Shown here piece by piece: positions 5,191-54,682 of a DNA stretch of 56,034 nt; within the stretch, counting starts at the first letter, position 1; each line of letters starts with the position of its first letter. The position numbers and the translations under genes were made by a program. The notes under the pieces are model-generated. The model was not told where the DNA came from. It was given only the letters and a program-made list of their open reading frames with translations, and ran no database searches. This DNA comes from an uncultured Endomicrobiia bacterium (GTDB lineage: Bacteria > Elusimicrobiota > Endomicrobiia > Endomicrobiales > Endomicrobiaceae): the NCBI GenBank assembly GCA_905234925.1, contig CAJOJJ010000001.1:1-56034 (forward strand), read 5' to 3'.

Positions 5191-5202
5191 TTTATTATTA
5201 CC

Positions 5203-6045
5203 TTATTCGCCGATTTTGAATCTTGCAAACTGTTTTACAACTATATCTTTATTAACTTTAGCAATAACATTCTTGATATTTTCTTTTTCTTCTCTCATAT
5301 AAGGCTGTTCCATCAAACATATCTGAGAATAAAATTTATTTAATTTACCAAGAACTATTTTATCGATTATGTTGGCAGGTTTTCCCTCTTCCTGAAGCTG
5401 CTTAACATAAATTTCTTTTTCTTTGTCTATTTCTTCCTGAGGAACTTGATCTCTCGTGATATATGAGGGGCTTACCGCCGCAATCTGCATTGCAATTTCT
5501 TTTTCAAGATTTTTAAAATCATCGGAAGCTACAACATCTGCAGGAGCTTCAAAATTTACAAGTACACCCAAAGAATTGTTCATATGAATATAAGAGGCAA
5601 CTTCCCCCGTCGTAGAAAATTTTGCAGTTCTTTTCAAAACAATATTCTCACCGATTGTTCCGATAGCTTCTTTAATAACATCCTGAACAGTTCTTGTATC
5701 ATCAAATTTCTGCTCGGAAAGATTTTCCGTAGAAGAAGTTTTTGCAACAAAATCAGCCAAACTTTCAGCCAATGCTTTAAATTTGTCGGTTCTTGCAACA
5801 AAGTCTGTTTCACAGTTAAGCTCTACCAATACACCTTGCTTCTTATCGCCGCTGAGCTTTGCTACTACTACACCCTGCTTTGCGGATCTGTCTGCTCTTT
5901 TTACTGCCGAAGCGATACCTTTTTCTCTCAAGATTTTTACGGCCGCTTCTATATCGTTATTTGCTTCTTTCAATGCGTTGTTGCAGTCTTTTATTCCTGC
6001 ACCGGTCATTTCTCTTAATTTTGTTATAAGTTCAATTGCTGACAT
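5203..6045 (-). CDS. tsf: translation elongation factor Ts
   Basis: The N-terminal UBA-like LREMTGAGIKDCNNALKEANNDIEAAVKILREKG and the CETDFVART motif identify it. It lies downstream of rpsB. Confidence 0.93.
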   Translation of the reverse strand: MSAIELITKLREMTGAGIKDCNNALKEANNDIEAAVKILREKGIASAVKRADRSAKQGVVVAKLSGDKKQGVLVELNCETDFVARTDKFKALAESLADFVAKTSSTENLSEQKFDDTRTVQDVIKEAIGTIGENIVLKRTAKFSTTGEVASYIHMNNSLGVLVNFEAPADVVASDDFKNLEKEIAMQIAAVSPSYITRDQVPQEEIDKEKEIYVKQLQEEGKPANIIDKIVLGKLNKFYSQICLMEQPYMREEKENIKNVIAKVNKDIVVKQFARFKIGE

Positions 6046-6047
6046 TA

Positions 6048-6848
6048 TTATTCTCCTTTAACTTCTTCTGCTGCTTTTTCTTCTTTAACTTCGGTTTCTT
6101 CCGCTGCAGGTGCATCTTCTTTAACTTCAGCCTGAGCTTCCGTTGCACCGTCAGCCTGTTTATTTTCAATGCCTTTACCTTCAAGAATTGCATCTGCAAT
6201 AACGGAACAGAAAAGCTTTACTGCTCTGATTGCATCATCATTTCCCGGTATAGGATGATCTATTAAATCAGGATCGCAGTTGGTATCACAAACCGCAACT
6301 ACGGGAATTTTTAATTTTTTTGCTTCTGCCAAAGCTGTTGCTTCTTCAACAGGATCTATAATGAACATAACCTCGGGAAGTTTGTTCATTGCTTTCAAAC
6401 CTTCAAGAGATTTTTCAAGTTTAATTCTTTCTTTTTCTTTCTGAGATTGTTCTTTTTTGGAGAGAACTTGAAATATTCCGTTTTCTTTCATTGCTTCAAG
6501 TTCTTTTAATCTTGCGATAGATTTTTTTAAGGTTTCGAAATTTGTAAGAGTTCCGCCCAACCATCTTTCACAAACAAAATATGCTCCGCATCTTAAAGCT
6601 TCTTCTTTGATAGGACCTTGTGCCTGTTTCTTTGTTCCGACGAAAAGAACTTCTTTTCCTTCCGCAGCGTAGTCTCTTACAACTTTGTAAACTTTCTTAA
6701 GTTCTTTCAAAGTTTTCTGCAGATCGATAATGTGAATTTTGTTTCTGCTGCCGAAAATGAATTTTCCCATTTTCGGATTCCATCTTCTTGTCTGATGCCC
6801 GAAATGAACACCTGATTCCAACAATGACTTCATTGTTACGTTTGCCAT
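6048..6848 (-). CDS. rpsB: 30S ribosomal protein S2 with acidic C-terminal tail
   Basis: [28 protein letters not shown] and the [22 protein letters not shown] motifs identify it. Confidence 0.95.
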
Positions 6849-7020
6849 TTTACTACCCCTTTTTAGTTTTTTTGTCTCTTTTTTTCCGAGACACCTCCAC
6901 GAACTTCAAACCTCAAACCCTTGTTACGGGGACTTTTGACTAATCCGTTCGTGTGCGTATTTTATACGACTTATCAACAGTATATTTTATCAAAAAAAAA
7001 TTTGCTTTGCAAATATTTTA

Positions 7021-7593
7021 TCAGCGTTTACGCTTTTTCAGCGGAATCCAATAATAAACTCCTGCAATAGAATTTGCCGGAATAAATTTACCGTCTTCCG
7101 ACAAAGACAAATTTATTTTCTCTATTGGAAGATATTTAATTATTTCACCGTTATATTGTTCCGGAAGCGGTACATTTCTTGAAAGTTCGCAGTTCTCTTC
7201 AACAGCTTCTTCTTTTAAAAGTTTTTGAACAAAATTTTTTGCCTGATCCAAAGAATCCGCAGCAATTGCGGAAATTATTTGCACCGCATAATCGCCGAAA
7301 AGAGCTTTGTTCTTATCGTACTCTTCCTGCAGAACATTACCTATAGTTAAAATATAAGGGCTGACAGCTATCCATTTTTCCGGAGCATCCGTTTCAAAAG
7401 AAAAAAGCAGATTTTCTTTTGAAAATGTATCATAAACTACTGCCGGTCTGATAATTTTTTCGCAAACAAAACAAGCTTTCTGTAAAGTTTCTTCCACTTC
7501 TATGGGAAGTTCTTCAAGATTAAGAAGTTTTCTGACGATTCTTGATATTTCTCTGGTTCTGACATTAATTTTAAAATTTTTTATCTTTCGCAT
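7021..7593 (-). CDS. hypothetical protein (190 aa); weak resemblance to stand-alone methionine-synthase activation-domain-like proteins
   Basis: The start is moved to the ATG at 7593 (RBS CGGAG); the ORF-track N-terminus (7594..7767) is just translation of repeat modules. The family call rests only on overall pattern and is not verified. Confidence 0.5.
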   Translation of the reverse strand: MRKIKNFKINVRTREISRIVRKLLNLEELPIEVEETLQKACFVCEKIIRPAVVYDTFSKENLLFSFETDAPEKWIAVSPYILTIGNVLQEEYDKNKALFGDYAVQIISAIAADSLDQAKNFVQKLLKEEAVEENCELSRNVPLPEQYNGEIIKYLPIEKINLSLSEDGKFIPANSIAGVYYWIPLKKRKR

Positions 7594-7606
7594 ATTTACT
7601 CCGATT

Positions 7607-7767
7607 AAAAAAATCGCTTTGCAATTTTCCGGCTGAAAAGCTGAACAGCTGATAAGTTTAAGGTACTTTATACTATAGATTCCCGACCAACGGCTCTTCG
7701 GGAATGACAGACGAAACGGCAATGTACAATGTATAATGTACAATAAACGGCAACGACTGGACGGCAA
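7607..7767. repeat. intergenic mosaic F-E-B-A between ptsI and the downstream gene
   Basis: The modules are: F AAAATCGC-TTT-GCAATTTT (7607-7628); E GCTGAAAAGCTGAACAGCTGATAAG (7631-7656); B GATTCCCGACCAACGGCTCTTCGGGAATGACAG (7678-7710); A CAATGTACAATGTATAATGTACAATAAAC plus CGGCAACGAC filler (7717-7767). Confidence 0.85.
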
Positions 7768-7770
7768 TTT

Positions 7771-9507
7771 TTATATGTATTTAAATTTCTTCATTTCGGT
7801 TTCGATTTCCGCCATTGAACTGCATTCCAAAAGTTTTGTTACCAAAATTTTTGCTTTTTCTTTCGAAACACTTCTTATAATTTTTTTAACTTGAGGAATC
7901 TGTGCAGCCGACATACTGAATTCATCAAGTCCTAAACCGAGCAGAACAACCGTATATGACGGATCTCCCGCCATTTCTCCGCACATTCCGACATCTACAC
8001 CTGCCTGATGAGCACAATCGATTATCCATTTTAAAAGTCTCAATATTGCCGGATGCATGGGATTATACAAATGAGTAATATTGGCATTTACCCTGTCAAC
8101 AGCTATAGTATACTGTATCAAATCATTAGTTCCTATAGAGAGAAAATCTACTTCCCTTGCTATAAGATCCGTAATTAAGGCTGCAGACGGCACCTCTATC
8201 ATAGCTCCGACTTTAATATTCTCATTAAACAGTTTACCTTCAATTCTTAATTCTTCTTTAGCCTGTTCCAATATTTTGTTTGCCGCTTTAATTTCCGCAA
8301 CGCTTGAAATCATCGGATACATAATTTTAATATTTCCGCATACCGAAGCTCTTAAAATACCTTTTAATTGAATTTTAAATATTTCAGGGTATTTCAAACA
8401 AAATCTTATCGCTCTCAGCCCCATGAAAGGATTGGCTTCTCTGCCGACTTCCATAAATCCGAGTTTTGCTATTTTATCGCCGCCGAGATCCATAGTTCTG
8501 ATAATGACATCATACGGCATCATCATCTTGGCAATTTGAATATAATTTTGATAATGTTCCTCTTCAGTGGGCATGGAAGATCCTGTAAGATACATAAATT
8601 CGCTTCTGTATAATCCTATACCGTTGGCACCGTGCCTTAATACGGAACGAATTTCTTTGGGAGTTTCTATATTTGCGCCGAGCTGCACCTCCGTACCGTC
8701 GGTAGTTACGGCAGGTAAATCTTTAAACTGTTCGAGAGCTTTTCTGTTGGAAAATTGTATTTCATATTCTCTTTTATAATTATTTATGGTTTCTTCAGTC
8801 GGATCAAGAATAACTATGCCGTTATTTCCGTCTATTATTATGGGCATACCTTGTTTAACATGATAACTGACGTTTTTCAAACCTACAACGGCAGGTATTT
8901 CAAGGCTGCGTGCAACAAGTGCGGTGTGGGAAGTTTTCCCTCCCAAATCGGTAGCAAAACCTCCTACCATATTTTCTCTCATGGCAACCGTGTCGGACGG
9001 CATAATATTTTTGGCAACAACAATTGAATTTTCTTCCAAATCTGCAAGAGTTTTTTTTGACTTACCGAGAAGATGAGCCGTAACTTTTTTGGCAACATCT
9101 ATCATATCATTTTTTCTTTCTCTGAAATATTCGTCTTCTATTGCATCAAAAGATTTGGAAAATTTCTTTACTACGGTATATATTGCGAATTCAGCAGTGT
9201 TTCCCTGTTTTACACAGTCTATAACTTCTTTACCTATCATAGGGTCATTTAATATCAAAATATGTGCATCGGCAATCTTTGCATAGTTCTCGCCGAGCAT
9301 TTTATTAAGTTCTGCATAATTCCGTTCAAGGTCGGCTTTTGTCTGTCTGACGGCAATTCTCAGACGGGCAAATTCTCTGTTGATTTTATTTACGGGAACA
9401 TCTTTTTTTACGGCAACCAAATCATCCTCTTCCAAAATAAAAACCTTGCCTATGGCAACACCGGAAGAAGCCGCTATACCGTTGAGAATAATGTTTTTTT
9501 GTTTCAT
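7771..9507 (-). CDS. ptsI: phosphoenolpyruvate-protein phosphotransferase (PTS Enzyme I)
   Basis: 578 aa. GGKTSHTALVARSLEIPAVVG contains the active-site His. SIGTNDLIQY and the PEP-utilising C-terminal motifs are present. Confidence 0.93.
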   Translation of the reverse strand: MKQKNIILNGIAASSGVAIGKVFILEEDDLVAVKKDVPVNKINREFARLRIAVRQTKADLERNYAELNKMLGENYAKIADAHILILNDPMIGKEVIDCVKQGNTAEFAIYTVVKKFSKSFDAIEDEYFRERKNDMIDVAKKVTAHLLGKSKKTLADLEENSIVVAKNIMPSDTVAMRENMVGGFATDLGGKTSHTALVARSLEIPAVVGLKNVSYHVKQGMPIIIDGNNGIVILDPTEETINNYKREYEIQFSNRKALEQFKDLPAVTTDGTEVQLGANIETPKEIRSVLRHGANGIGLYRSEFMYLTGSSMPTEEEHYQNYIQIAKMMMPYDVIIRTMDLGGDKIAKLGFMEVGREANPFMGLRAIRFCLKYPEIFKIQLKGILRASVCGNIKIMYPMISSVAEIKAANKILEQAKEELRIEGKLFNENIKVGAMIEVPSAALITDLIAREVDFLSIGTNDLIQYTIAVDRVNANITHLYNPMHPAILRLLKWIIDCAHQAGVDVGMCGEMAGDPSYTVVLLGLGLDEFSMSAAQIPQVKKIIRSVSKEKAKILVTKLLECSSMAEIETEMKKFKYI

Positions 9508-14584: not shown

Positions 14585-15543
14585 TTCATACTCCTTAAAA
14601 AGCTGAAAATAGTTTTAGATAATTTGGTAAAATCATGATGTGCATACTGACTTTTTGAAACCAAGTCTTTCTTTATCAACTTAATATTTTTATTTCTCAT
14701 TTTATCGATTTTTACCGGTACCGAATTGTATATTTTATATCTTTCCTTAACTGATTTCGGTATCATTCCGTTATTTACTATTACGGCATCCAAAACATTG
14801 TCATAAGAATGTTTTATTATCGCATCGATATGATCGCCTAAAGTATAGTTCGATGTTTCACCGTCCTGCGTCATAATATTGGATATATAAATTTTAACGG
14901 CATTTGATTTTTTCAAAGCGGAAACAATACCGTCAAAAAGCAAATTAACTATTACCGAAGTATACAATGAACCTGGTCCGAATATCACGCAGTCTGCATC
15001 GATTATGGATTTTATTACATCTTTCGAAACTTTTGCATTTTTAGGTTCTATCTCGACGGTATCAATAGTATACTTACTTTTGGAAATATTCGTTTCGCCC
15101 TTAACTTTCTTTCCGTCGACAAGAGTTGCCTTAAGTTTGACATTATCCAGAGATACGGGAAGAACTTTTCCTTTTATTGCAAGCACATCGCTTGCGTTAA
15201 GAATTGCTTTATCAAAACCGCCGGAAACGGAAGTCAGTGCCGTCAAAAACAAATTGCCGAAAGAATGATTTGAAAGTCCTCCCTTTTTCGGGAATCTGTA
15301 TTGAAAGAGCCTTGTTATTAAATTTTCTTCCTCGGAAAGAGCCACCAAACAGTTTCTTATATCCCCGGGAGGAAGAACACCGAGTTCTTTTCTCAGTTTA
15401 CCGGAACTGCCTCCGTCGTCGGAAACAGTTACAACCGCAGTAATATCGCAATTATATTTCTTCAATCCTCTCAGCAGGGTAGACAATCCTGTTCCCCCGC
15501 CCAAAGCAGTAATCTTATATTTTTTATTTTTTTTATCCTGCAC
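14581..15543 (-). CDS. yvcK: YvcK/CofD-family gluconeogenesis factor (UPF0052)
   Basis: ITALGGGTGLSTLLRGLK, VTVSDDGGSSG and FGPGSLYTS motifs identify it. It is in its conserved position after rapZ. Confidence 0.88.
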   Translation of the reverse strand: MQDKKNKKYKITALGGGTGLSTLLRGLKKYNCDITAVVTVSDDGGSSGKLRKELGVLPPGDIRNCLVALSEEENLITRLFQYRFPKKGGLSNHSFGNLFLTALTSVSGGFDKAILNASDVLAIKGKVLPVSLDNVKLKATLVDGKKVKGETNISKSKYTIDTVEIEPKNAKVSKDVIKSIIDADCVIFGPGSLYTSVIVNLLFDGIVSALKKSNAVKIYISNIMTQDGETSNYTLGDHIDAIIKHSYDNVLDAVIVNNGMIPKSVKERYKIYNSVPVKIDKMRNKNIKLIKKDLVSKSQYAHHDFTKLSKTIFSFLRSMK

Positions 15544-28393: not shown

Positions 28394-29900
28394 TTAAAAC
28401 AAGAAATTGATTATATTTATATAATCAACCATAGACTTTTCAGATGTAACAAAATATCCTGCATTGGGAAGGCTGAACAACAAAGAAATGTTTATAAAAA
28501 CAGAATAGAAAAACATTAAAATAAATAAAATATTAATCAAAGTTTTTTCTTTTTTATTTTTTATTCCGTTAAATATAAAATTATAAACTGCGACGGAAAT
28601 AATCATCATTATTGAAAGATACTCAAAGAAAAATCTGTTTACCATTCCCACAAAACTTGTTACAATCAAACTTATTAATGCCGCACAAAACATTACCGTT
28701 ATAAGGATAACGGAATTTTTATTTTCTTTATAAGATTTTTTTATAAAATACGGAACCGAAAGCAAAAATATTATTACAGGACTTGTCCATAAAATTCCGG
28801 CAATCCATTCATTACCAACGGAGTGCCCGGCTGCTTTTACCAAAGAAAAAACGGTATATCCGCTCATCTGAGGCAATGTGAATAAATTATTTACCAAACC
28901 CGTAATACAGTCTCTCAGATTAGGGACATATGTACCTATCATACAGCCGTTCAATTGATGCTTTAAGCCAAAATCAAAAACGGAATCAAACCTTAAATAA
29001 TTATATAATGATAAAAAAACACCTATTACTATACACGGTATTATAAAAATAAAGGCATGTTTTATTACAAACTTCAGTCTTTTTGTTTGAATATAACTTG
29101 TAAAACAAACCGCCATAAGAAACAGCGGGATAAATAATACATAATACGGACGAGCACCTACTGAAAGACTGAGCAGAAGCCCAAGCATAAAAACAAAAAA
29201 AACTGATTTTTGGCAGTTCTTTATATAGATGAAAAATATTAAAAAAGATGTCAACAATAAAACATTGGCAGTTATTATTGCAGATTCATATATGGAACTT
29301 CTTATCAACAAAAACGGGAGCCAGTTGCAAAAGCCTATAAAAAACACACATAAAAGGCTGTTCGGCTGTTCGGCTCAATTTAAAAGTCAAAAATAACGAC
29401 AACAAAAATGAAAAACATCCTAAAACAAAAACTAACAATTTATCGGATAAATATAATCCCGTAATCAAATTAAAAGGAAGATAAAACAGCAATACCGGAG
29501 TTATACCAAAATATAAATATATTTTGTTATTATATAAGCTTGTGTCTTGAAAAAAATTTTTAATAATATCATCAACATTTTCCGTCAAGAATACACCATA
29601 ATCCAAACAAAATCTTTTTTCTTTTAAGGAATCAACCAACATATTGTAATAGTTATAGCAGGAAGAAAATGATTTTATTCCTTGCGAGGTATCCAAGCTG
29701 TAATACATTTCATGTATAGGACACAAATAAATTTGTTCCGTAGGTAAAAAATTCTCTTTATGAAAAAAATTTGTTTCCAAAAACAAATAGCCTGCCATAA
29801 CAATAAATACGGCAAACATAAAAAATATTTTTGTATATCTTGGAAATATGATGGGCAAAAAAGAAAACAAAACTAAAAAAAGAATTAAAAGCGGCAGCAT
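28394..29900 (-). pseudogene. polytopic membrane protein (GT-C-like glycosyltransferase fold suspected) split by a +1 frameshift in a homopolymer
   Basis: ORFs 29286..29900 and 28394..29347 overlap and are both multi-TM. Removing one T from the coding-strand T6 run (plus-strand A6 at 29339-29344) joins them into one ~501-aa reading frame (...EQPFMCVF-IGFCNWLPF...). The family call is weak. Confidence 0.55.
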
Positions 29901-32064: not shown

Positions 32065-33408
32065 ATGAATAAAAATATTTTGGCTGTAATAGTTTCTTAT
32101 AATCCTGATAATTCAATAATTAAATTATATAATTCAATCAAAGAACAAGTTGATGAGTTAATAATTGTCGACAACGCATCAACGGAAGAAGAATCAAGAA
32201 AAATCTTAGAAGAGCTGTCTCAAAAATTGAAAATAATTTATAACAATAAAAATCTCGGTATTGCTACAGCATTAAATCAAGGTGCGAAATATGCAATAGA
32301 AAACGAATATAAATGGTTGTTGACTCTTGACCAAGACAGTGAATTTTTTCCCCACACTTACGAAACTTTGCTTGCTTCTTATAAAAATATGCCGGATAAA
32401 GACGATGTTATGCTGATTGCACCGAAATACAAAGAACGACAATGTATAATGTACAATGTACAATGTACAATAAAAGACAACGACAAAGAACGGCAATGTA
32501 CAATAAACGACAAAATGACAAAAGATTTGAAAATTAGAAAGGAAAGTAATGTTTTATGGAAAGAAGTTATATTAAATCTTACTTCAGGAAGTTTAATAAA
32601 GACTGAAAGTTTTAAGAAAATAGGATTTTTCGACGAGAAACTTTTTATAGATCAAGTTGATAACGATTATTGTTATCGTTTAAAAAAGGCAGGATACAAA
32701 ACAAAAATTGCACAGAATATTTTATTCCTGCACAAGCTCGGCAACTCAAAAAAGAAACTTTGGTTTATAATAACAAACCATTCACCGATAAGGAGATATT
32801 ATCTTGCAAGAAATTCGACCACAATGTTAAAAAGATATTTTTTCGTTGCTCCCTACACGACGGTAAGATACTTTTTGGGAGGAACAATTTTCGGTTGGAT
32901 AAAAATACTTTTATTTGAAAAAAATAAGTTTAAGAAGATTTTCTATGGGATAAAAGGAATGTTAGAGGAAGTATACAAACTTAATATCAAAAAAAACAAT
33001 ACTAAATCAATAAAAAAAATTATTCCTTTAAAAAATTTTTTAGGAAAAGAATTTATAGGATATTCAGGACAAGATGCAATAGATAAAATTTATAAAGAAA
33101 AACAAGGATATATAAAAAATGCTTTTTACAGAAAAGATATAGGATACATTACATTAGCTTGGGGAAATGAGGAAAGTGGATTGTGCCATATTATAAAAAG
33201 AAGAACTGAACAAAAAATTGATATTTCTATATTTTTATCCGATTTATCTGACATAATAATTAAAGGGAATTTATATAAAAACAAAAAAAGTTCTTCCAGA
33301 CGAAATATTTGGTATAATGGAAAAATCGTTATTATAGAAACAACATATTATGGAAAAAATTTAAATTGGATTGTATCGAGTTTTAACCAAAGAAAAGAAC
33401 CTAAATAA
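32065..33408 (+). CDS. family 2 glycosyltransferase (rhamnosyltransferase-like) fused to a ~120-aa C-terminal domain resembling BECR-fold (Barnase/EndoU/colicin-E5/RelE-like) nucleases
   Basis: The N-terminus ILAVIVSYNPDN...ELIIVDNAST...LLTLDQDS...FIDQVDNDYCYRLKKAGYK fits GT2. The C-terminus AIDKIYKEKQGYIKNAFYRKDIGYITLAWGNEESGLCHIIKRRTEQKID...WYNGKIVIIE...WIVSSFNQRK matches, from memory only, the PBECR-type motif. No stop codon separates the two parts. Confidence 0.75.
   Translation: MNKNILAVIVSYNPDNSIIKLYNSIKEQVDELIIVDNASTEEESRKILEELSQKLKIIYNNKNLGIATALNQGAKYAIENEYKWLLTLDQDSEFFPHTYETLLASYKNMPDKDDVMLIAPKYKERQCIMYNVQCTIKDNDKERQCTINDKMTKDLKIRKESNVLWKEVILNLTSGSLIKTESFKKIGFFDEKLFIDQVDNDYCYRLKKAGYKTKIAQNILFLHKLGNSKKKLWFIITNHSPIRRYYLARNSTTMLKRYFFVAPYTTVRYFLGGTIFGWIKILLFEKNKFKKIFYGIKGMLEEVYKLNIKKNNTKSIKKIIPLKNFLGKEFIGYSGQDAIDKIYKEKQGYIKNAFYRKDIGYITLAWGNEESGLCHIIKRRTEQKIDISIFLSDLSDIIIKGNLYKNKKSSSRRNIWYNGKIVIIETTYYGKNLNWIVSSFNQRKEPK
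32434..32523 (+). repeat. module A repeat inserted in frame inside the glycosyltransferase
   Basis: GAACGACAATGTATAATGTACAATGTACAATGTACAATAAAAGACAACGACAAAGAACGGCAATGTACAATAAACGACAAAATGACAAAAG is translated as ERQCIMYNVQCTIKDNDKERQCTINDKMTK. This is the same frame and near-identical peptide as in the pilin leader (EKQCAMYNVQCTINDNGNERQ). Confidence 0.85.
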
Positions 33409-33524: not shown

Positions 33525-34451
33525 TTAAAACTTAAAAGATAAACTAATAAAGTGGGAGCCATACGACTCTTTAATCTTCAACGGCATTTCAAAAGCATAA
33601 TCGGCTGTCAATACGGTGTTATTGGAAAATTCAAAGCTGTATCCGAAACCGAAATCAAAAGCTTCTTCCCTGCCGCCTAATCTTATCGCCAATTTTCTGT
33701 TAAGAAGATAAGATTCTGCACCTAATTTAAGAGTAGTCTCATTATCTCTGAAGAGTATATCTGCCGCAATGGTAAAGTAAGGAATCTTTACGTAAGGCAG
33801 CATATCGTTATAATAACTTAAACCTAAAACATTTACGTTTTTAACTTCATCTTTTTCCAAATATCCGATATCTGCAGGAACAAGATATTTACTACTGTAA
33901 CCTATACCTATACCGTTGGAAAAAAGTGCCATAAAACCGATATCCGCAGTCATTGCACCCTTGGAACTTTCCAAATCTTTATCTTCTTCGTCAAACTTAG
34001 TTTCCTGCATTAAATATTTTGCATTGACACCGGCACTTAACTCTACAAAATCACTGTCTATTCTTAAAATATCATTCAATGTTCTTGCATAACCGACGTT
34101 AAAAGTATCTTCTCTTCTTAAGCCCGGCACAGCAGTTGATGACCACGCAAAAGATATCGCACCCCATTCCGGAGATATAGGATAAATATATCCGAAATAG
34201 TTTGCTGAAATTTCTACTCCGTCTACTCCTGCAAAAAGCCTTGAACCCATAAGGGTAACTTCCTGCTGATTTGCAAATGCTATACCTGAAATATTATACA
34301 AAGGGGCATTTGCATCATTACCGACTGCAGTATATGCTCCGCCCATACCTAATGCACGTACTCCCCAGTAGGTATCGACAAAAGCTGCTTGAACGCTCTG
34401 TACTGCTGCAAACATTATTAAGAGTGATGTTAATACTAATATTTTTTTCAT
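33525..34451 (-). CDS. outer-membrane beta-barrel protein, PorV / TraF_2 / UPF0164-like
   Basis: The signal peptide is MKKILVLTSLLIMFAAVQSVQA. The motif GVRALGMGGAYTAVGNDANAPLYNISGIA is typical of this barrel class. It has alternating beta pattern throughout and a C-terminal ...ISLSFKF (terminal Phe). Confidence 0.65.
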   Translation of the reverse strand: MKKILVLTSLLIMFAAVQSVQAAFVDTYWGVRALGMGGAYTAVGNDANAPLYNISGIAFANQQEVTLMGSRLFAGVDGVEISANYFGYIYPISPEWGAISFAWSSTAVPGLRREDTFNVGYARTLNDILRIDSDFVELSAGVNAKYLMQETKFDEEDKDLESSKGAMTADIGFMALFSNGIGIGYSSKYLVPADIGYLEKDEVKNVNVLGLSYYNDMLPYVKIPYFTIAADILFRDNETTLKLGAESYLLNRKLAIRLGGREEAFDFGFGYSFEFSNNTVLTADYAFEMPLKIKESYGSHFISLSFKF

Positions 34452-34575
34452 AATTTACTTTTTAACTACAGATTTCTCACACTCACTTCGTTCGGTTCGA
34501 AATGACAACCCTTTTTATTTGTCGTCTAAACGAGCTTCTGTCCGAAGAATTCTGTCTTTAACCTTAAGAAAAACT

Positions 34576-35820
34576 TTACCAAACAAATGCTATTGTACCG
34601 CTGATAATCTTACCTTTTTCTTTTACCTTAATCTGATAAACGTACGTTCCGCTCTCTGCCCAGTCTCCACTGTTGTTCGTATCTTTTCTACCTTTCCATA
34701 CGAAACCGTTCGTATCGCCGGCAGTCAATTCCGCAATCTTCTTACCGTTCAAGTTGTATATTTTAACTGTATCGCCCTCAACCAAATTACCGAATCTGAA
34801 GCCCTCATAAGTTCCGTTAGAAATTCTGGATTTAATTCTTACTCTCTTTGCAGGTCTGTAATCGCTGTCGTTCAAATTACTGCTTACCATTATCAAGTAA
34901 TATCCAAAATTTGATATATCACAGGATACGGTTTTATTTTCCGTATCTACACTTGTTACTTTTACATACTCCCAAGTGCTTCCATCCGCACTGTAAAGAA
35001 CATCAAACTTGGTTGCCGTACTTCCGGAAGAACCGTAAGAGAAAGTGGCATAACCTTGAGTATTTATATTAATACCTCCGGTTGTATAAACTTTATATGC
35101 CGTAAGCATTTTATTTTTATCGATATCGGACGTTGCAACCGTTTTAACAGCCTTAAGTGCTGCAGAGCGTGCATAACCCGAAACAGGGAAAAATGCCGCA
35201 AACAAATCATCCAAAGAAATTTCTTCTATTATTACACTTCCGCTGCCCGATACTGAACCCGGATCAAAAGTAACCGTCGTTCCCGAATATTCCTGATTAC
35301 CGTCACTATACTCTACAGTTCCACCATCGGAAGCATTAACTTCTGCCGTGGCTGAAGATGCAACAAGAGCTTCTATATATTCATCCGCAGAAACATTGCT
35401 GTCCGGATAATAAGCCTCTGTTGTAACTCCGGAATCGTTCACCGCAATAATTCTTATTTTATAATGTACGGAAGAGACGCTTTCCGCCAATTCCGGCAAA
35501 GCAATATAAAATTCATTGTTGTTATATATGGTTAATTCATCATCTAATGCGGTACGCACTGTGGAATCTTTATCGGTATAATACAAAACATTTGCCGTAG
35601 CAGAAGAGTACCCTTCTCTACCAAACTCTACGGAAATTTTAGGCTTTAATAATCTGGTCTCAGCAGAAATAGTTTTGATAGGAGTATGTGAAATTGTTAC
35701 TTTAGGGAAATAAACATAAGCTTTCAACGTAGCAAAAGTAGTATCTGCAAAGGCACAATTAACCATTGCTGATAAGAATACTAAACATAAAAATGATAAT
35801 AACAAAATCTTTTTATTCAT
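34576..35820 (-). CDS. secreted protein with FlgD-Ig / T9SS-type C-terminal sorting-domain-like tail
   Basis: It has a signal peptide. The N-terminus TFATLKAYVYFPKV resembles the start of the 298-aa paralog. The last ~75 aa, DTVKIYNLNGKKIAELTAGDTNGFVWKGRKDTNNSGDWAESGTYVYQIKVKEKGKIISGTIAFVW, match the FlgD_ig/Por_Secre_tail pattern. Confidence 0.65.
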   Translation of the reverse strand: MNKKILLLSFLCLVFLSAMVNCAFADTTFATLKAYVYFPKVTISHTPIKTISAETRLLKPKISVEFGREGYSSATANVLYYTDKDSTVRTALDDELTIYNNNEFYIALPELAESVSSVHYKIRIIAVNDSGVTTEAYYPDSNVSADEYIEALVASSATAEVNASDGGTVEYSDGNQEYSGTTVTFDPGSVSGSGSVIIEEISLDDLFAAFFPVSGYARSAALKAVKTVATSDIDKNKMLTAYKVYTTGGININTQGYATFSYGSSGSTATKFDVLYSADGSTWEYVKVTSVDTENKTVSCDISNFGYYLIMVSSNLNDSDYRPAKRVRIKSRISNGTYEGFRFGNLVEGDTVKIYNLNGKKIAELTAGDTNGFVWKGRKDTNNSGDWAESGTYVYQIKVKEKGKIISGTIAFVW

Positions 35821-35823
35821 ACT

Positions 35824-36588
35824 CTATTTTTTCTGCTCTGATACAAAGTTACCGTCTTTATCTACTTTAAACTTAATTTCTTTCTGTACTTCTTTTTCCA
35901 ACGCATTTATTTTAAATACGGCAATATATTTGCCTTTTAACAAACCGTCAACAGGAATCAAATTTTCTATAAATTCTCTGCTACTTTCACAATAAGTAGG
36001 TACCGTTTCAGGTATCTCTATTGTTTTTACTAAATTCTTCTTATTTTTATAATATAAATCTATACTTCCCGAATGTCTGATGTGAACATTACCTTTATTT
36101 TTTACAACCATTTTATACTGAATAGTTTTATTTAAAGTTTGAAGATCTATAGATTCAATATCAAAATCAACATTTTCCGTGCCAAGTACCGTAATATACA
36201 AAGGAACCGACATCAACATACTTATCATCTGTCCTGATGTTCTTTCGGTCTTAAACTCTACTCTGATAGCAACAGAACCTTTGAAATTTTCACCTATAAA
36301 AACTTTATACGGTATCTCTATTTTTTCACCTGCACGAACATCATATTCTTTTTTATCAAAAACCAAAATTTTTTCAGCATCAAGATCTTTATTTTCTGAG
36401 AAACAATTTCCCAACGATACTTTGATAAAAACTCTTATATCCGTATCATCCGTATTGTTTATCGTATATATTCCGTCATACTCCGCACCGGGACCACCAA
36501 AAACATTCGTTACGGGAGGGTGAAGAGAAACTGCATAAGAGCAAGTAGTTAAGAGAATAAAAAAAAGTGTAAATAATATTTTTTTCAT
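35824..36588 (-). CDS. secreted two-domain beta-sandwich protein (periplasmic chaperone-like)
   Basis: It has a signal peptide. Two ~110-aa halves each show an Ig-like strand pattern (IYTINNTDDTDIRVFIKV..., YKMVVKNKGNVHIRHSGSIDLY...). No named family is recognised; the chaperone idea is inference. Confidence 0.55.
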   Translation of the reverse strand: MKKILFTLFFILLTTCSYAVSLHPPVTNVFGGPGAEYDGIYTINNTDDTDIRVFIKVSLGNCFSENKDLDAEKILVFDKKEYDVRAGEKIEIPYKVFIGENFKGSVAIRVEFKTERTSGQMISMLMSVPLYITVLGTENVDFDIESIDLQTLNKTIQYKMVVKNKGNVHIRHSGSIDLYYKNKKNLVKTIEIPETVPTYCESSREFIENLIPVDGLLKGKYIAVFKINALEKEVQKEIKFKVDKDGNFVSEQKK

Positions 36589-36597
36589 AGTATTACT

Positions 36598-37374
36598 CTA
36601 GTTATCAACTTCATAAACAAAATTTATAGTATTTGTTCCAAAATGGTCATTGCTTACTACATTTGAAAAAGCTGCACAGAAAAAAACCACCGCATCATAC
36701 TGTTTAGGAATCCAGCAACTCCCCTGATACGGAGCACTTCCGTCAAAACCACACCAAATTCCCCAATAAGAAACTATTTTTGCATACAATATCTTTTTGG
36801 TGGAAAAATTATCATCACTGACATCCAAAAGCAACCTTGTTCCATAAGTTGCAGAGGGAACATTATCACTGATTGTTACAAAATCAGTATAAGAAGGAAG
36901 AGTCGTTGGCAATGCATAATCAGGCTGGGTAGTATATACCTTATATAACATAGGAGCATATCCGTATTCTCCTCCGCCTGAACCTGCCCTAACTAAACCA
37001 TTGTACTTTGCTCTCTGTACATTTTCTTCATATTCAGTTCTTGATGCAGTTACTTTGTAGACATAACTTCCAACACTAATGTTATTTCTGTTGTCAGTAT
37101 ACACATATACATTTGCAGCCGTATTCGCTGTACATGTTGCTTTTATAACCGCATAAACATCTGAAACTTTATACTGTGGAGAGGATAAGCCATAAGTTAT
37201 ATCACTTGAACCTAAATTCCAAGAAATCTCATCAACTTCAGTCTCTCCATGAGAAGTTCCATTAATTGGATAAGTTCCGCTAAATTTATAAAGTTTTACA
37301 TCAAATTCTACATCAGCTCTCGCAAAAGCCGTAAAAAACAAAATAAAAGTTAATAAAATAAAAATTTTTTTCAT
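36598..37374 (-). CDS. secreted subunit-like protein, paralog of 37505..38401
   Basis: The signal peptide is MKKIFILLTFILFFTAFARA. Blocks shared with the upstream gene are NVYVYTDNRNN / KIFMYTDNKNG, GSGGGEYGY / GAGGGVWIGYGEY and the C-terminal DAVVFFCAAFSNVVSNDHFGTNTINF / KAVIFFNVAYNNLVGGSRYGTEMIQF. Confidence 0.6.
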   Translation of the reverse strand: MKKIFILLTFILFFTAFARADVEFDVKLYKFSGTYPINGTSHGETEVDEISWNLGSSDITYGLSSPQYKVSDVYAVIKATCTANTAANVYVYTDNRNNISVGSYVYKVTASRTEYEENVQRAKYNGLVRAGSGGGEYGYAPMLYKVYTTQPDYALPTTLPSYTDFVTISDNVPSATYGTRLLLDVSDDNFSTKKILYAKIVSYWGIWCGFDGSAPYQGSCWIPKQYDAVVFFCAAFSNVVSNDHFGTNTINFVYEVDN

Positions 37375-37464
37375 ATAATCAAAATGTTTTAAAACTTCAA
37401 CTTAAAATACTTTTTAATTAAATTGTCCCTTCAAACAACTTGATTAAAAAGTAAACAAGCTACA

Positions 37465-37494
37465 GGATAGAGGATATGAAAATATCCTCTATCC
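37465..37494 (-). terminator. strong stem-loop directly after the first gene of the surface operon (partial terminator or mRNA-stabilising hairpin)
   Basis: GGATAGAGGATAT-GAAA-ATATCCTCTATCC has a 13-bp perfect stem and lies 10 nt downstream of the stop of 37505..38401. No clean U-run follows immediately (TGTAGCTTGTTTACTTTTT). Confidence 0.5.
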
Positions 37495-37504
37495 CTAAAA
37501 ATAT

Positions 37505-38401
37505 TTATTCTGTTACTGTTGCAAACTGAATCATTTCTGTTCCGTATCTTGAACCACCTACAAGGTTGTTATAAGCTACGTTAAAGAAAATAACAGCTTT
37601 TTCATTAGCAAACCAGTTGCTTGAAACACCGGCATATTCACCATATCCTATCCAAACTCCTCCGCCTGCACCGGATCTTCCGATAGCCCAGTTCTTAGAG
37701 GATTCTGTTTCAAGATTTGCGCTGCTTGCTACGTTATCTATGGTATCGTTGATATCTATCAAAGTTCTCTTTCCGTTACCGAAAAGGGTATCATCAGCAT
37801 ACAAATTAGGATATTCAGTTATTTTCTGAGTATTGTCATCTCCGTTCTGTGCTACGGAAGCTTTCATTACTCTAACTCTTACACCCTGGATATCTCCGTC
37901 AGTATATGCCGTAGTCTGAGAAGATTGTGCATCTTTCTTTACGAGAGCACCATAAGATACGTGAGTATGATCTGCTCCGCCATAAGTCATAACCTGAGTT
38001 CTCGGTATGAATGTTTTATAACCGTTTGTACCATTTTTGTTGTCTGTGTACATAAAAATCTTTGTTCCTGCGGCAACTGCAGCTAAATTCGATTCAACAA
38101 AAGCAATCTGTCCTGCCTTTGCATACTGTTCTGTTGCAGAACCTAAAACAATAGCATTACCATTTACATCTTGGTCAACAGCGAAATTAATTTCTGTTGC
38201 CTGTGTTCCACTATAACCATTAATGAAACTCTTGCTGGAATCATAGTTGAACAATGAAACATTGAACTGCAAATCAACTGCACCAAACACAGCATAAGCT
38301 TTAAGTTTTGCGTACGATGTAGCTGTGGTTGCTGCCCAAGAACTGCTGCCAAGCGTTGTTGCTAACGCTAAAGCCAAAACTAAACTTACGACTTTCTTCA
38401 T
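37505..38401 (-). CDS. secreted subunit-like protein (298 aa), first gene of the surface operon
   Basis: The signal peptide is MKKVVSLVLALALATTLGSSSWA. The mature protein is Gly/Asn/Thr/Ser/Tyr-rich and beta-rich, and paralogous to 36598..37374. The RBS is AAAAGGAG. Confidence 0.65.
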   Translation of the reverse strand: MKKVVSLVLALALATTLGSSSWAATTATSYAKLKAYAVFGAVDLQFNVSLFNYDSSKSFINGYSGTQATEINFAVDQDVNGNAIVLGSATEQYAKAGQIAFVESNLAAVAAGTKIFMYTDNKNGTNGYKTFIPRTQVMTYGGADHTHVSYGALVKKDAQSSQTTAYTDGDIQGVRVRVMKASVAQNGDDNTQKITEYPNLYADDTLFGNGKRTLIDINDTIDNVASSANLETESSKNWAIGRSGAGGGVWIGYGEYAGVSSNWFANEKAVIFFNVAYNNLVGGSRYGTEMIQFATVTE

Positions 38402-38456
38402 TTTTATTCTCCTTTTTTACGCATATTTTTTTTGCATTTTTTATTTTTGCTTTGAT

Positions 38457-38485
38457 ATGATATAAAATCTTCTGAAAATTGTCAA
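38457..38485 (-). promoter_or_regulatory. candidate sigma70-type promoter of the surface operon
   Basis: The minus strand reads TTGACA (38485-38480), 17-nt spacer, TATCAT (38462-38457), about 55 nt upstream of the ATG at 38401. Confidence 0.5.
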
Positions 38486-38585
38486 CAAAAAATGGGAATT
38501 TTCACATCTTTTTCACAATTAAAAAAATCGTCGAATACAATACTGGATTGCCACACTCGAGAAAAACATCTCTCTCAATGACGGT

Positions 38586-52498: not shown

Positions 52499-54682
52499 AT
52501 GAAAAAAATACTTGTATCTGCCGCAATGTTTCTATTTTTCTTCAGCATGGTAAATGCTCAGGAAATCGTAAGGGAAAAAACTTTCAACTCAAATTTTGAC
52601 ACCACTGTAGATAAACTTGAAAAGAATTTGTCTAAGTACTACGGCAAAAATTTAGTAATCAGAACCAGTGTTTCTAACGGTAAAAAAGGCGGACATGCAA
52701 GCATTAATTGGGACACATCATATGATGAAAACGGAGAAAATCCGCAAAGAGATAAATTTAAGCTGTTTGTAAGAGAAAACGAAAAAAATTCAACAAGCGT
52801 AAAAATGTTCTATGACTTTGAATATACGTCAAACGGTTCTTATGTAAAACCTGACAGAGGGATGACGGCAGCACTGTATAATGATATGTGGACCGTTTTG
52901 GAAGCAGATTCCGTGAATGAAAAACAATTTAAGAAAGTTATTAACGGTAAAAATATAACTGCAGCCGACGGTAAGAAGAAAAAAGATAAAAAAAGCGACA
53001 AAAATAAATCTGCAGAAAAAAATACAAAATCGGATAAAAATAAAGAAACATTACAGCCCGTTGCAGCGATAAAAGCCGAAGATACGAAAAATTCAGCAGT
53101 TTCCAAAGAACCTAAAACGGAATCCGCAGAACCTGAAAAAGCTGAAATTTCCAAAGAACAAAAAACGGAAATTGTGTCGGATAAAGTACAAAAAGAACCC
53201 GTAAATGCAGCTGTTATCGACGAACCTAAAGAAGAATCGTTCGAAAAAACGGAAACAGAACTTAAAGCTGCCGGACCTGTTAAAACGGAGGTTATTGTTC
53301 CTGCAGTAGAAAAAGCAGAAACTTCAAAAGGAAAACAAAAAACAAACACTCCTCAAACTGAGCCTGTGGAAAGTATAGTACCTATTACTACGGAACCTGA
53401 AGAAGAAGTAAAAGAAGCTTTTGAAGCAGCAGAACAGGCAATAGAAAAAGCTCCGGTTATTTCACAAGCGGAACAGTCGGCTGAAGCTGCAGTTAAAGCA
53501 GAACAAATTATGGAAAAAGAAAAGATTTCCGAGTCCGCCGGCACCGTATCCTTAGGTGTTGCCGCTGCCGCATCCGTTCAGACTCAAAAAAATGAGGATG
53601 AAACCATAGATATTAAACAAAAAAAGTCTGAGGCTGCCGCTAAGAAGCAGAAAGAAAAAGAAGAGCGAAAAGCACAGAAACTTAAAGAAAAAGAAGAGTT
53701 AAAGAAACAGAAAGAAGAGCAGGCTGCCCAAAAACTAAAAGAAAAAGAAGAATTGGCTGCAAAGAAAGAACAGGAAAGGCAAGCCGTTCTTGCCGAAAAA
53801 ATGCAGAAACAGGAAGAAGCTAAAAAACTGAAAGAGGAACAGGCTGCGAAAAAACTTCAAGAAAAAGAAGAGTTAAAGAAACAGAAAGAAGAGTTGGCTG
53901 CAAAAAAACTGAAAGAAAAAGAAGAATTAAAGAAACAGAAAGAAGAACAAGCTGCCCAAAAACTGAAAGAAAAAGAAGAGTTGACTGCAAAGAAAGAACA
54001 GGAAAGGCAAGCCGTTCTTGCCGTAAAACTTCAGCAAAAAGAAGAAGCAAAAAAACAGAAAGAAGAGTTAGCTGCTCAGAAACAGAAAGAAAAAGAAGAT
54101 AAAATAAAAGAACAGGAAGAAGCCAAGAGACTAAGAGAAGAGGCAAAACAAAAAGAGAAAGAAGAATTGGCTGCAAAGAAACTGCAGGAAGAAGAAGATT
54201 TAAAGAAACAGAAAGAAGCAGAACTTGCCGCAATCAAGCAAAAAGAAGAAGAGGATGCAAGAAGGCAGGAAGCAGAAGTTGCCGCAGCAGACTTGCAAAG
54301 AAAGCAGCAAAAACAGAAAGAAAAAGAAAATTTGGAAAAATCCAAAAGCAGAACATATGATATTTCTTATTATAAAGTATATTCCACTATGTTGGAAAAT
54401 GTTTCCAAAAATGTTAAAGGTATAGAAACTGCTGATGAAGAAAACGGTATAATCGTTACGGATTGGACCTATTCCGGAAATGCTTTACAATCACATAAAG
54501 CAAAAAGAAGATTTAAAATTACGTTAAGATTTACCGAAATTTCCGAAAACAAGACAGGTGTTTCGGCACAAACGGAATTTGAAACATTCTTGATTGATTG
54601 GAAGAAGCAAGTTTTAAAAGATACATTCCTGACAGATTATTATAACTCTCTGTTTAATGATTTGGAGGAAGGGCTTAAATAA
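52499..54682 (+). CDS. secreted 727-aa protein: two related globular end domains separated by a long Lys/Glu/Ala-rich repeat (TolA-domain-II-like) spacer
   Basis: The signal peptide is MKKILVSAAMFLFFFSMVNA. The central ~400 aa are low complexity with 18-aa units A[QK]KL[KQ]EKEELKKQKEE[QL]A. The N- and C-terminal ~110-aa domains share the same pattern (…WDTSY…FKLFVRENE… versus …TDWTYSG…FKITLRFTE…). Confidence 0.7.
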   Translation: MKKILVSAAMFLFFFSMVNAQEIVREKTFNSNFDTTVDKLEKNLSKYYGKNLVIRTSVSNGKKGGHASINWDTSYDENGENPQRDKFKLFVRENEKNSTSVKMFYDFEYTSNGSYVKPDRGMTAALYNDMWTVLEADSVNEKQFKKVINGKNITAADGKKKKDKKSDKNKSAEKNTKSDKNKETLQPVAAIKAEDTKNSAVSKEPKTESAEPEKAEISKEQKTEIVSDKVQKEPVNAAVIDEPKEESFEKTETELKAAGPVKTEVIVPAVEKAETSKGKQKTNTPQTEPVESIVPITTEPEEEVKEAFEAAEQAIEKAPVISQAEQSAEAAVKAEQIMEKEKISESAGTVSLGVAAAASVQTQKNEDETIDIKQKKSEAAAKKQKEKEERKAQKLKEKEELKKQKEEQAAQKLKEKEELAAKKEQERQAVLAEKMQKQEEAKKLKEEQAAKKLQEKEELKKQKEELAAKKLKEKEELKKQKEEQAAQKLKEKEELTAKKEQERQAVLAVKLQQKEEAKKQKEELAAQKQKEKEDKIKEQEEAKRLREEAKQKEKEELAAKKLQEEEDLKKQKEAELAAIKQKEEEDARRQEAEVAAADLQRKQQKQKEKENLEKSKSRTYDISYYKVYSTMLENVSKNVKGIETADEENGIIVTDWTYSGNALQSHKAKRRFKITLRFTEISENKTGVSAQTEFETFLIDWKKQVLKDTFLTDYYNSLFNDLEEGLK
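53684..54139 (+). repeat. coding tandem duplication, 2 x 228 bp, itself built of 54-bp sub-repeats
   Basis: AAAGAAAAAGAAGAGTTAAAGAAACAGAAAGAAGAGCAGGCTGCCCAAAAACT... at 53684 recurs at 53912 with few substitutions. This includes the block GAACAGGAAAGGCAAGCCGTTCTTGCCG. Confidence 0.85.

Follow-up and report, generated by a model that had tools for sequence, protein, structure and literature searches.

A conserved five-gene operon of Endomicrobiaceae as a candidate usher-less surface-fibre system of the donor-strand type

A five-gene operon (g1 to g5) was analysed in a 56,034-nucleotide stretch of DNA from an uncultured Endomicrobiia bacterium (assembly GCA_905234925.1, contig CAJOJJ010000001.1, positions 1 to 56,034), hereafter the window. 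It is proposed, with a probability of about 0.5, that the operon encodes an usher-less surface fibre of the donor-strand type, in which g2 would form the cap, g1 the shaft and g4 a tail anchoring on g5. A fibre is favoured because the proteins form a series that parallels the polarity of donor-strand polymers, namely a body without the strand (g2 and the larger relative that occupies its place in sister operons), a body with the strand (g1) and the strand without that body (g4). The first-pass annotation, made from the sequence alone, had seen in the locus a surface-fibre or surface-layer assembly system; the surface-layer version found neither support nor contradiction here. What held up of this description are the conserved unit, a new protein family, the two-Ig fold of g3, the strand and a hairpin after the first gene, while the fibre and its surface exposure, like polymerisation, the contact between g4 and g5 and the role of g3, are what we infer from them. 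The coordinates of all features are collected in Table 1.

All five proteins begin with Sec-type signal peptides, seen in the sequence, and the five co-directional genes, which have exactly the sizes first given for them, are separated by 130 bp (g1-g2), 9 bp (g2-g3), 3 bp (g3-g4) and 124 bp (g4-g5). That they would stay together in related genomes was borne out, since the same order was found in ~30 distinct Endomicrobiaceae operons. These were identified among ~45 related loci gathered by a metagenome scan with a g5 profile and by look-ups of g5 homologs; the relatives were read as far as 10 kb to each side of the gene that had matched, and their open reading frames (ORFs) were classified with local hidden Markov models. 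The order was always a g1-family gene, then either a member of a 400-477-aa family or a second g1-family gene, then g3 (in ~45% of operons), a g4-family gene and a g5-family gene. The operon is also carried by cultured Endomicrobium proavitum Rsa215 (complete genome CP009498.1), whose set comprises a g1-type gene (AKL97971.1), a g3-type, a large-type and a g4-type gene, a gene for a 153-aa protein and a g5-type gene.

The paralogy first noticed between g1 and g2 is supported by BLASTP (E=1e-11, 24% identity over 269 columns), and the statement that the pair lies outside any named family was upheld, in that neither Pfam nor NCBIfam matched either protein, g1-family members scanned one by one against Pfam gave no match, and the g1-family profile found no sequence match in PDB. 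In a word-seeded search of 5.8 billion proteins the sole match of g1 was g1 itself, and a full HMMER profile search of 1.84 billion representatives yielded a family of 49 proteins of ~240-300 aa. In the family alignment, a strand of the form K-x-A-x-A/V-x-F comes directly after the signal peptide, the motifs YTDN, Y-x-GLVR and G-x-R-x-L-x-D are conserved, and the C-terminus reads DVIxFFGAxFxxVxGGDxYGTxTIxFxxxxE with an almost invariant final Glu. This residue (rarely Asp or Asn) stands five positions past a conserved Phe in nearly all members of the g1 family and also in the larger family that fills the second position, or slot 2, of sister operons; a carboxylate fixed in this way is reminiscent of how the C-termini of pilins are anchored in the chaperone cleft. 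For g1, g2 and g4, the predicted cleavage sites of the export signals are of the A-x-A type, and Cys is absent from +1.

An AlphaFold2 model of g1, built from the family alignment, was beta-rich, with a predicted local distance difference test score (pLDDT) of 83 and a predicted template-modelling score (pTM) of 0.79, and residues 19-45, which include the strand, had no secondary structure in this monomer model. No significant match to the model was returned from PDB by Foldseek. The best-ranked entries were TLP-1b, CanA, the Sulfolobus 0406 thread and the pilins FimA, FimI, FimG and HdaB, all of them donor-strand-complemented filament subunits; the four top-ranked matches, of the self-assembling-fibre class, had E-values of 0.055-0.09 and template-modelling (TM) scores of 0.18-0.32, and the pilin matches were weak (E 0.4-1.7). 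These matches of a predicted model may be taken as a hint. The CryoSeek authors report the same pattern of weak matches for the TLP-1 protomer, whose N-terminal strand also comes out disordered when the monomer is predicted (PMC11494351). An origin of g1 from a phage or capsid protein was considered as well and rejected, as the model found no match among viral structures.

The N-terminal strand is shared by g1 and g4, whose bodies are unrelated. In the g1 family it carries Ala or Ser at position -4, Ala, Val or Ile at -2 and Phe at 0, each conserved at 98-100%; in the g4 family positions -2 and 0 are conserved at 97-100%, and Ala or Ser occupies -4 in 33 of 34 members. In both, polar residues alternate between the conserved positions. 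The N-terminal echo between g1 and g4 was part of the first-pass annotation. In a pairwise comparison of the two proteins it was not significant; at the family level it stood, since an hhalign comparison aligned the signal peptide and N-terminal strand alone (probability 83%, E=1e-5), and the strands also co-vary within operons. Thus, KLKAYAVF of g1 is paired with TLKAYVYF of g4 in the window, IKSAFASF with VLSAFASF in the third operon of locus L085, EFTAEVSF with EFGAEVIF in locus L124, and FFKAELSF with TYKAEISF in E. proavitum (g1-family member given first in each pair). Across 25 operons, the mean BLOSUM score of strand pairs was 9.9 within operons vs 4.1 across operons (permutation p<=5e-5, in a test that ignores relatedness among operon subtypes). 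Identical strand residues of g1 and g4 are often written with different synonymous codons, so the likeness appears to be kept at the protein level, and recent gene conversion was rejected as its source. The shared N-terminus is thus judged real from these alignments, and it is proposed that it behaves like a donor strand.

The second position of the operon supplies the other half of the polarity argument. The mature g2 protein begins at the first core strand, and its alignment to g1 shows a gap at the N-terminal extension. In 23 of the ~28 related operons, slot 2 holds instead a 400-477-aa relative that has an extra N-terminal domain and likewise no N-terminal extension; this family consists of a ~200-aa N-terminal domain followed by a g1-like body that starts after the strand (hhalign probability 93%, E=2.7e-7). 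The extra domain matched Exop_C above the cut-off in one member and CBM11, CBM30 and SGBP_B weakly, and on these profile matches it would resemble galactose-binding-like or carbohydrate-binding modules.

The third gene had been read as a secreted protein with two immunoglobulin (Ig)-like halves that might be chaperone-like. As regards the fold, this held: g3, which has 48 homologs at 43-56% identity, was modelled by AlphaFold2 as two Ig-like domains (pLDDT 88.6), and Foldseek matched the model to dozens of chaperones of chaperone-usher systems at ~1e-8 and probability 1.0 (CfaA, CsuC, FimC, Caf1M, DraB, SafB and PapD). However, the top PDB match was not PapD but an Enterococcus WxLIP (E=8e-13, probability 1.0), TM scores to the PDB matches were ~0.5, and at the sequence level only marginal matches of Ig/ASH type were obtained. 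The PapD Pfam families (PF00345/PF02753) matched neither g3 nor 30 relatives, and Pfam WxLIP_HBD was matched by one of 30 g3-family members (E=0.049). The C-terminus of g3 is a polar tail without a transmembrane helix. A weak LPAM match raised the possibility of a lipoprotein, which was ruled out, the Cys not being conserved among homologs. Moreover, over half of the related operons lack g3, which is therefore not a chaperone that every such operon has to encode.

Signals for unequal expression centre on the first gene. The near-consensus promoter described upstream of g1 (TTGACA-17-TATCAT) was confirmed at 11 of 12 consensus positions; taken as a class, sites resembling promoters show no enrichment there (24 vs an expected 20.3). 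This particular site lies in a 146-bp stretch (38373-38518) that is 77% identical to the nearest relative, locus L084, and the DNA downstream of this stretch has no similarity. A strong Shine-Dalgarno sequence, AAAGGAGAA, is found on g1 only among the five genes. The hairpin right after g1, first given as 13 bp at 37465-37494, is real and has a stem one base pair longer; none of 200 shuffled sequences folded as stably. Of 15 related operons tested, 12 likewise have a strong hairpin behind their first gene, E. proavitum included, with differing stem sequences and z-scores of -4.3 to -6.9. It is proposed that this stem-loop acts as an attenuator or an mRNA 3' stabiliser and so lifts g1 above the genes that follow it, and g1 would be made in excess because it has both the sole strong ribosome-binding site and the stable hairpin after it. 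A phase-variation switch was rejected, no convincing inverted repeats flanking the promoter and no recombinase nearby having been found. The inverted repeat after leuC is probably the leuC terminator, a role that would make it the upstream boundary of the operon.

The operon is also marked by the uneven divergence of its genes. In locus L084 the same leuC...argJ synteny is kept and slot 2 holds a different gene. Amino-acid identity between the two loci is 95-97% for PssA, LeuA, LeuC and ArgJ and 92% for RNase PH, and within the operon it falls from 89% (g5) through 69% (g4) and 48% (g3) to at most 31% (g1/g2). At the DNA level, leuC is 88% identical and the promoter, 5' untranslated region and signal-peptide start 77%; similarity is absent at 38373-36510 and returns in g3-g4 (71%) and g5 (84%). 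By this pattern, the distal genes are a hypervariable cassette that occupies a fixed site. Related genomes often have two or three operons in tandem, as in L085 (692-15556) and also in L094, L100, L102, L104, L105, L116 and L119, where the tandem g5 copies are 63-87% identical to each other and the distal genes very different. In L085 (5300-5587), L089 (674-961) and L129 (the E. proavitum locus, 5057-5356), and so in both a rumen metagenome-assembled genome and E. proavitum, a short GIY-YIG gene (95-99 aa) is placed between operons or just upstream of them; this may be coincidence or may be tied to cassette turnover. Candidatus Endomicrobiellum pyrsonymphae, an endosymbiont and the best genome match in a leuC scan whose other 79 loci came from unrelated phyla, has no operon downstream of leuC. 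At this place (locus L004, 154-723 and 4256-5790) it has a DNA methyltransferase-like gene with a neighbour downstream of leuC and a low-complexity Ser/Pro-rich ORF upstream. The absence fits a loss of surface structures in an intracellular lineage.

At the other end of the operon, g4 and g5 resemble a pair known from type IX secretion systems (T9SS). The last ~100 residues are the most conserved part of the g4 family in its alignment. In g4 itself the scores for CHU_C (PF13585; 21.8 bits, curated cut-off 27 bits) and Por_Secre_tail (TIGR04183; 19.6 bits, cut-off 23 bits) both fall short; the FlgD-Ig/T9SS-type C-terminal domain first read in g4 recurs across the family, with matches to CHU_C in 33 of 35 members (best E 6e-7), Por_Secre_tail in 33 (1.3e-5), FlgD_ig in 27 (1.6e-8) and PorU in 20 (5.5e-6). 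Since 33 of 35 members have significant family-wide E-values for CHU_C and Por_Secre_tail, the domain is likely to be homologous. In E. proavitum (L129) two further proteins bear on this domain. One is the 153-aa protein (14617-15078), encoded between the g4-type and g5-type genes, which comprises a signal peptide, a short N-terminal piece and a g4-type C-terminal domain only, and which could compete for or occupy the barrel. The other is a 962-aa Peptidase_M6 protein encoded just upstream of the operon (6472-9360), which ends in a g4-like FlgD-Ig/T9SS-like domain. The domain thus has a wider use in this lineage, a hint that some general pathway may depend on it.

The reading of g5 as a PorV-type beta-barrel with a terminal Phe was supported by matches to PorV/PorQ (NF033709; E=5e-10, 39.5 bits, cut-off 90 bits) and, end to end, to PorP/SprF (TIGR03519; 1-308 vs 1-292 of 292, E=4e-6, 26.5 bits, cut-off 90.55 bits), and by its C-terminus, SLSFKF, which is a beta-signal. 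Among sampled homologs, PorV/PorQ was matched below its cut-off by 27 of 27 (best E=2.4e-11) and PorP/SprF by 10 of 27. This is the best-conserved gene of the operon, with 175 homologs, the 120 listed being 63-89% identical to it. Neither g5 nor its family members scanned singly matched Pfam, no PDB sequence was matched by g5 alone or by its profile, and PDB sequence searches with the g1, g3, g4 and g5 family profiles gave nothing useful.

A protein docked by its C-terminal domain on a PorP-, PorQ- or PorV-type barrel is a described mode of anchoring in the T9SS of Bacteroidota (PMC9143113), so that the g4-g5 pair taken by itself has a precedent, although the present pair comes from another phylum and scores below the cut-offs. 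In a different explanation, g4 would be ordinary T9SS cargo of type B, g5 its cognate PorP/SprF-like partner, the T9SS would be encoded elsewhere, and g1-g3 would be unrelated neighbours or co-secreted accessory proteins. We regard this as improbable. The recurrence of both cargo-type domains throughout the g4 family, of PorV/PorQ and PorP/SprF matches in the g5 family (over the full length in g5 itself) and of the same domain type in the Peptidase_M6 neighbour of E. proavitum argues for it, and adjacent cargo and PorP-like genes are the rule in Bacteroidota (PMC9143113). Against this, all scores lie below curated cut-offs, g5 has no Pfam match, no T9SS core gene, such as SprA/Sov, GldK/L/M/N, PorU or PorV, was found in the window or in the ~45 related loci read, and g1 and g2, which have no C-terminal sorting domain, are inseparable from g4-g5, with g1 sharing the strand of g4. 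Besides, the T9SS is described for Bacteroidota and relatives and is not known from Elusimicrobiota. The wording of the paper on the pairs is "the Bacteroidetes T9SS" (PMC9143113), and literature searches on T9SS in Elusimicrobia and on secretion systems in E. proavitum returned nothing relevant.

The barrel also invites a reading as an uptake device, with g5 as a FadL/PorV-type channel for hydrophobic or small substrates and g1-g4 as binding proteins of the surface or periplasm feeding it. PorV-type barrels belong to the FadL-like class, three g5-family members matched UPF0164 weakly and two matched OMP_b-brl weakly, and FadL proper has been reported absent from Endomicrobiaceae (PMC11257099), which would leave the role vacant. 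Yet the extreme diversification of g1 and g2, with replacement of the cassette, beside near-identical housekeeping genes is unexpected for nutrient binding, the sorting-type C-terminal domain and the chaperone-like fold have no role in known FadL systems, and two to three tandem operons per genome argue for variable surface structures, so this explanation is considered highly improbable.

Under the proposed fibre mechanism, all five proteins would be exported by Sec. The g2 protein, with a g1-type body and no extension, would only accept a strand and form the distal end, and in most sister operons the larger slot-2 relative with its carbohydrate-binding-like head would act as a tip adhesin. 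Having both the body and the amphipathic strand, g1 would polymerise head-to-tail as the shaft, in excess over the other proteins. The same strand on an unrelated body would let g4 donate to the last g1 without accepting one, and since it could not accept a strand, it would end fibre growth; its FlgD-Ig/T9SS-like C-terminal domain would then dock on the barrel g5 and hold the fibre in the outer membrane. Before assembly, g3 may cap or stabilise subunits, being dispensable or supplied in trans where the gene is missing. Finally, g1 and g2 would be under strong diversifying pressure or cassette replacement, as expected of exposed adhesins and phage or host targets.

Several points weigh against this mechanism, besides the relatedness of operon subtypes noted above for the permutation test. 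Operons with two g1-type genes carry the strand on both and have no strand-less tip, the filament-subunit fold matches of g1 are not significant (best E=0.055, TM 0.2-0.4), and the structure models cover monomers only (g1 and g3) and no polymer. The chaperone-like g3 is absent from most operons, and g4 and g5 score below every curated family cut-off. No outer-membrane translocon was identified at the operon, in the window or at the ~45 related loci, and it is unlikely that a 308-aa barrel passes folded subunits. In addition, comparative genomics of Endomicrobiaceae found pilins to be the only appendages encoded (PMC11257099).

An alternative is a non-polymeric surface complex, in which g5 would anchor g4 through the C-terminal domain of g4, and g1, g2 (or its larger carbohydrate-binding-like relative) and g3 would be accessory surface proteins that dock one-to-one. 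The shared strand would then serve in docking or sorting by beta-augmenting one partner common to all, such as g5, g3 or an unlinked export factor, and the complex would act in adhesion or in the capture of glycans without forming a fibre. A conserved partner is conceivable in that the invariant face of the strand (A, A/V, F) and g5 (63-89% identity) are the same across operons; the best match of g3, WxLIP, binds its partner one-to-one by strand insertion, slot 2 carries carbohydrate-binding-like domains, and the weakness of the filament-subunit matches points the same way. Nevertheless, the variable strand positions co-vary within operons, which a conserved partner would not need, the pattern of strand-plus, strand-minus and strand-only proteins (g1, g2 and g4) suits a polar polymer better, and the signals for excess expression that mark the first gene speak for a subunit used repeatedly. 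Such a complex is thus held to be rather unlikely, and the donor-strand fibre is retained as the preferred reading.

The rest of the window is of housekeeping character, with phosphotransferase system (PTS) and ribosomal genes, leuA/leuC, argJ, SMC, polyamine synthesis and others. Its LeuC shares 78% identity with the protein of Candidatus Endomicrobiellum pyrsonymphae, the source names given for g3 and g5 homologs are Endomicrobiaceae, Elusimicrobia and Candidatus Ruminimicrobium bovinum, and an identical g1 occurs in the same operon on three further ENA metagenome contigs; judged by these similarities, the window is from the ruminant clade of Endomicrobiaceae, phylum Elusimicrobiota (taxonomy after PMC11257099). 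In agreement with the first-pass annotation, a Pfam reading of ORFs of at least 150 aa found no usher, secretin or T9SS core gene in the window, the 56 kb being the part of the source genome that was covered. The one large ORF without a Pfam match, for a 727-aa protein (52499-54682, plus strand), was considered as a hidden usher and ruled out, being an E/K-rich coiled-coil repeat protein. It has a Sec signal, two small globular ends and a ~450-aa E/K-rich repeat centre (KLKEKEEL...), which from its composition is probably a coiled coil, and it could be another envelope or surface protein. Four more ORFs of ~200-320 aa without a Pfam match lie at 1001-1636 (plus), 7021-7767 (minus) and 28394-29900 (minus). 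Convergent with g5, a 447-aa protein (32065-33408, plus) fuses a Glycos_transf_2 domain to PBECR1, which is nuclease-like; at the same position, the nearest relative L084 encodes a 279-aa glycosyltransferase family 2 (GT2) protein without the PBECR1 extension. From its position beside a surface-protein operon, the 447-aa protein could be a putative glycosylator of the fibre.

Table 1. Features of the operon and its surroundings (positions in the window; aa, amino acids).
Feature	Position	Strand	Description
g1	37505-38401	minus	298 aa; Sec signal peptide, N-terminal extension, then beta-sandwich body; proposed major polymerising subunit
g2	36598-37374	minus	258 aa; g1 paralog without N-terminal extension; proposed distal (tip/cap) subunit
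g3	35824-36588	minus	254 aa; exported, two Ig-like domains (PapD-like/WxLIP-like); candidate chaperone or strand-donating partner
g4	34576-35820	minus	414 aa; signal peptide, N-terminal strand, variable middle, conserved C-terminal domain; proposed base/terminator
g5	33525-34451	minus	308 aa; outer-membrane beta-barrel, distant PorV/PorQ/PorP(SprF) relative; proposed membrane anchor
g1 N-terminal strand, residues 28-39	38285-38320	minus	TSYAKLKAYAVF; amphipathic; A(-4)-x-A/V(-2)-x-F(0); proposed donor strand
g4 N-terminal strand, residues 26-38	35707-35745	minus	DTTFATLKAYVYF; A-x-V-x-F register as in g1
g4 C-terminal domain, residues ~318-414	34579-34869	minus	FlgD-Ig/T9SS-type beta-sandwich; proposed docking module for g5
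Promoter, sigma-70-type	38457-38485	minus	TTGACA-17-TATCAT upstream of g1; 11/12 consensus positions
Stem-loop, 14-bp stem	37464-37495	minus	g1-g2 spacer; dG -24.1 kcal/mol, z=-5.5
Inverted repeat, perfect 11 bp, 3-nt loop	38585-38609	minus	after leuC

If the proposed fibre exists, it would join donor-strand polymerisation, as known from chaperone-usher pili, TasA and archaeal threads, with the anchoring of a C-terminal domain on a barrel, as known from the T9SS. It would also mean that a T9SS-like module for anchoring exists beyond the Bacteroidota superphylum, a point of relevance to the origin of T9SS attachment complexes, and it would give a function to a conserved, multi-copy, hypervariable locus of rumen and termite-gut Endomicrobiaceae. 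To judge by the carbohydrate-binding-like tips of sister operons, plant fibre or host glycans may be what it attaches to, and the locus may show what sort of gene cluster encodes orphan environmental fibrils such as TLP-1. As the operon is present in cultured E. proavitum, the model is testable. More tentatively, and with some doubt, the locus may represent a new Gram-negative fibre class, defined by a shaft and tip without known relatives, an N-terminal donor strand, a T9SS-like tail on a PorP/PorQ-like barrel, no usher or lipoprotein pilin, and, in a phylum from which it is not known, possibly no T9SS. In that case, either export across the outer membrane would follow a new route, or C-terminal domain and barrel would be an ancestral stand-alone module out of which T9SS attachment complexes later arose, and there is a fair chance that the fibre will prove to be of a distinct class once its export route is known.

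It had been stated that the combination is not a described pilus architecture, and this agrees with the literature search, in which no paper was found describing subunits, strand, C-terminal domain and barrel together, and with the comparison below, in which the locus falls outside the definitions of chaperone-usher, type V, WxL and T9SS systems. Two of these systems share some features with it. Type V pili of Bacteroidota (FimA/Mfa1) are likewise encoded by a five-gene operon with shaft, anchor/terminator and tip, their shaft is polymerised by strand exchange and their anchor stays in the outer membrane; however, the pilins of type V are lipoproteins, a protease matures them and the strand they donate is C-terminal, whereas g1, g2 and g4 have signal-peptidase-I-type signals, no lipobox and, in g1 and g4, an N-terminal strand, and there is no match to FimA/Mfa Pfam families. 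The WxL clusters of Firmicutes supply the best structural match of g3 and combine a small protein with a larger one that has the same C-terminal domain and with a two-Ig partner binding by strand insertion (PMC10599100), an arrangement reminiscent of the g1 family, the larger family and g3. In contrast to the present locus, they are Gram-positive and bind peptidoglycan; here, neither a WxL motif nor a Pfam match was found, g3 lacks the C-terminal transmembrane helix of WxLIP proteins, which are of DUF916-DUF3324 type, and the g1 model did not match WxL chains.

Self-assembling fibres, comprising the TLP-1a/b pond fibrils, TasA, the archaeal threads (Saci_0406) and the CanA cannulae, are the top, if weak, structural neighbours of g1. 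Their subunits are linked by an N-terminal strand that is disordered in monomer predictions (PMC11494351), and no usher is needed. The similarity of g1 to them is not significant (E>=0.055), its family profile has no PDB sequence match, and these fibres are not known with a dedicated tip, a terminator of sorting-type domain or a barrel anchor.

The closest parallels are found in the two remaining systems. With chaperone-usher pili (Pap, Fim, Csu, CFA/I and Caf1) the locus shares Sec-exported beta-sandwich subunits with an amphipathic N-terminal extension, a proposed distal subunit without this extension, which in sister operons has an extra binding domain in a layout like that of FimH or PapG, a proposed last subunit (g4) that would donate and could not accept, as PapH, a two-Ig protein (g3) with a chaperone-like fold, and a gene for the proposed major subunit that comes first and is followed by a hairpin. 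It differs from them in that an usher (~800 aa, PF00577) is present neither in the operon nor in the window nor in the ~45 related loci, E. proavitum included, in the lack of pilin or PapD Pfam membership, in a g1 that is about twice pilin size with a fold that has no significant PDB match, in the optional status of the chaperone-like gene, and in a proposed anchoring by a C-terminal domain on a small barrel. With the T9SS pairs of type B/PorP-SprF, PorZ-PorQ and PorU-PorV it shares a protein with a FlgD-Ig/T9SS-type ending encoded beside a ~300-aa barrel, as well as the conservation of C-terminal domain and barrel and the variability of the passenger (PMC9143113). It departs from these pairs in its phylum, Elusimicrobiota, in scores below the cut-offs, in the absence of core genes from the window and the loci read, and in the N-terminal strand of g4, which is common to co-encoded proteins without the C-terminal domain and is undescribed for T9SS cargo. 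By analogy, then, the locus would resemble a chaperone-usher pilus in the logic of its polarity and a T9SS attachment pair in the manner of its anchoring.

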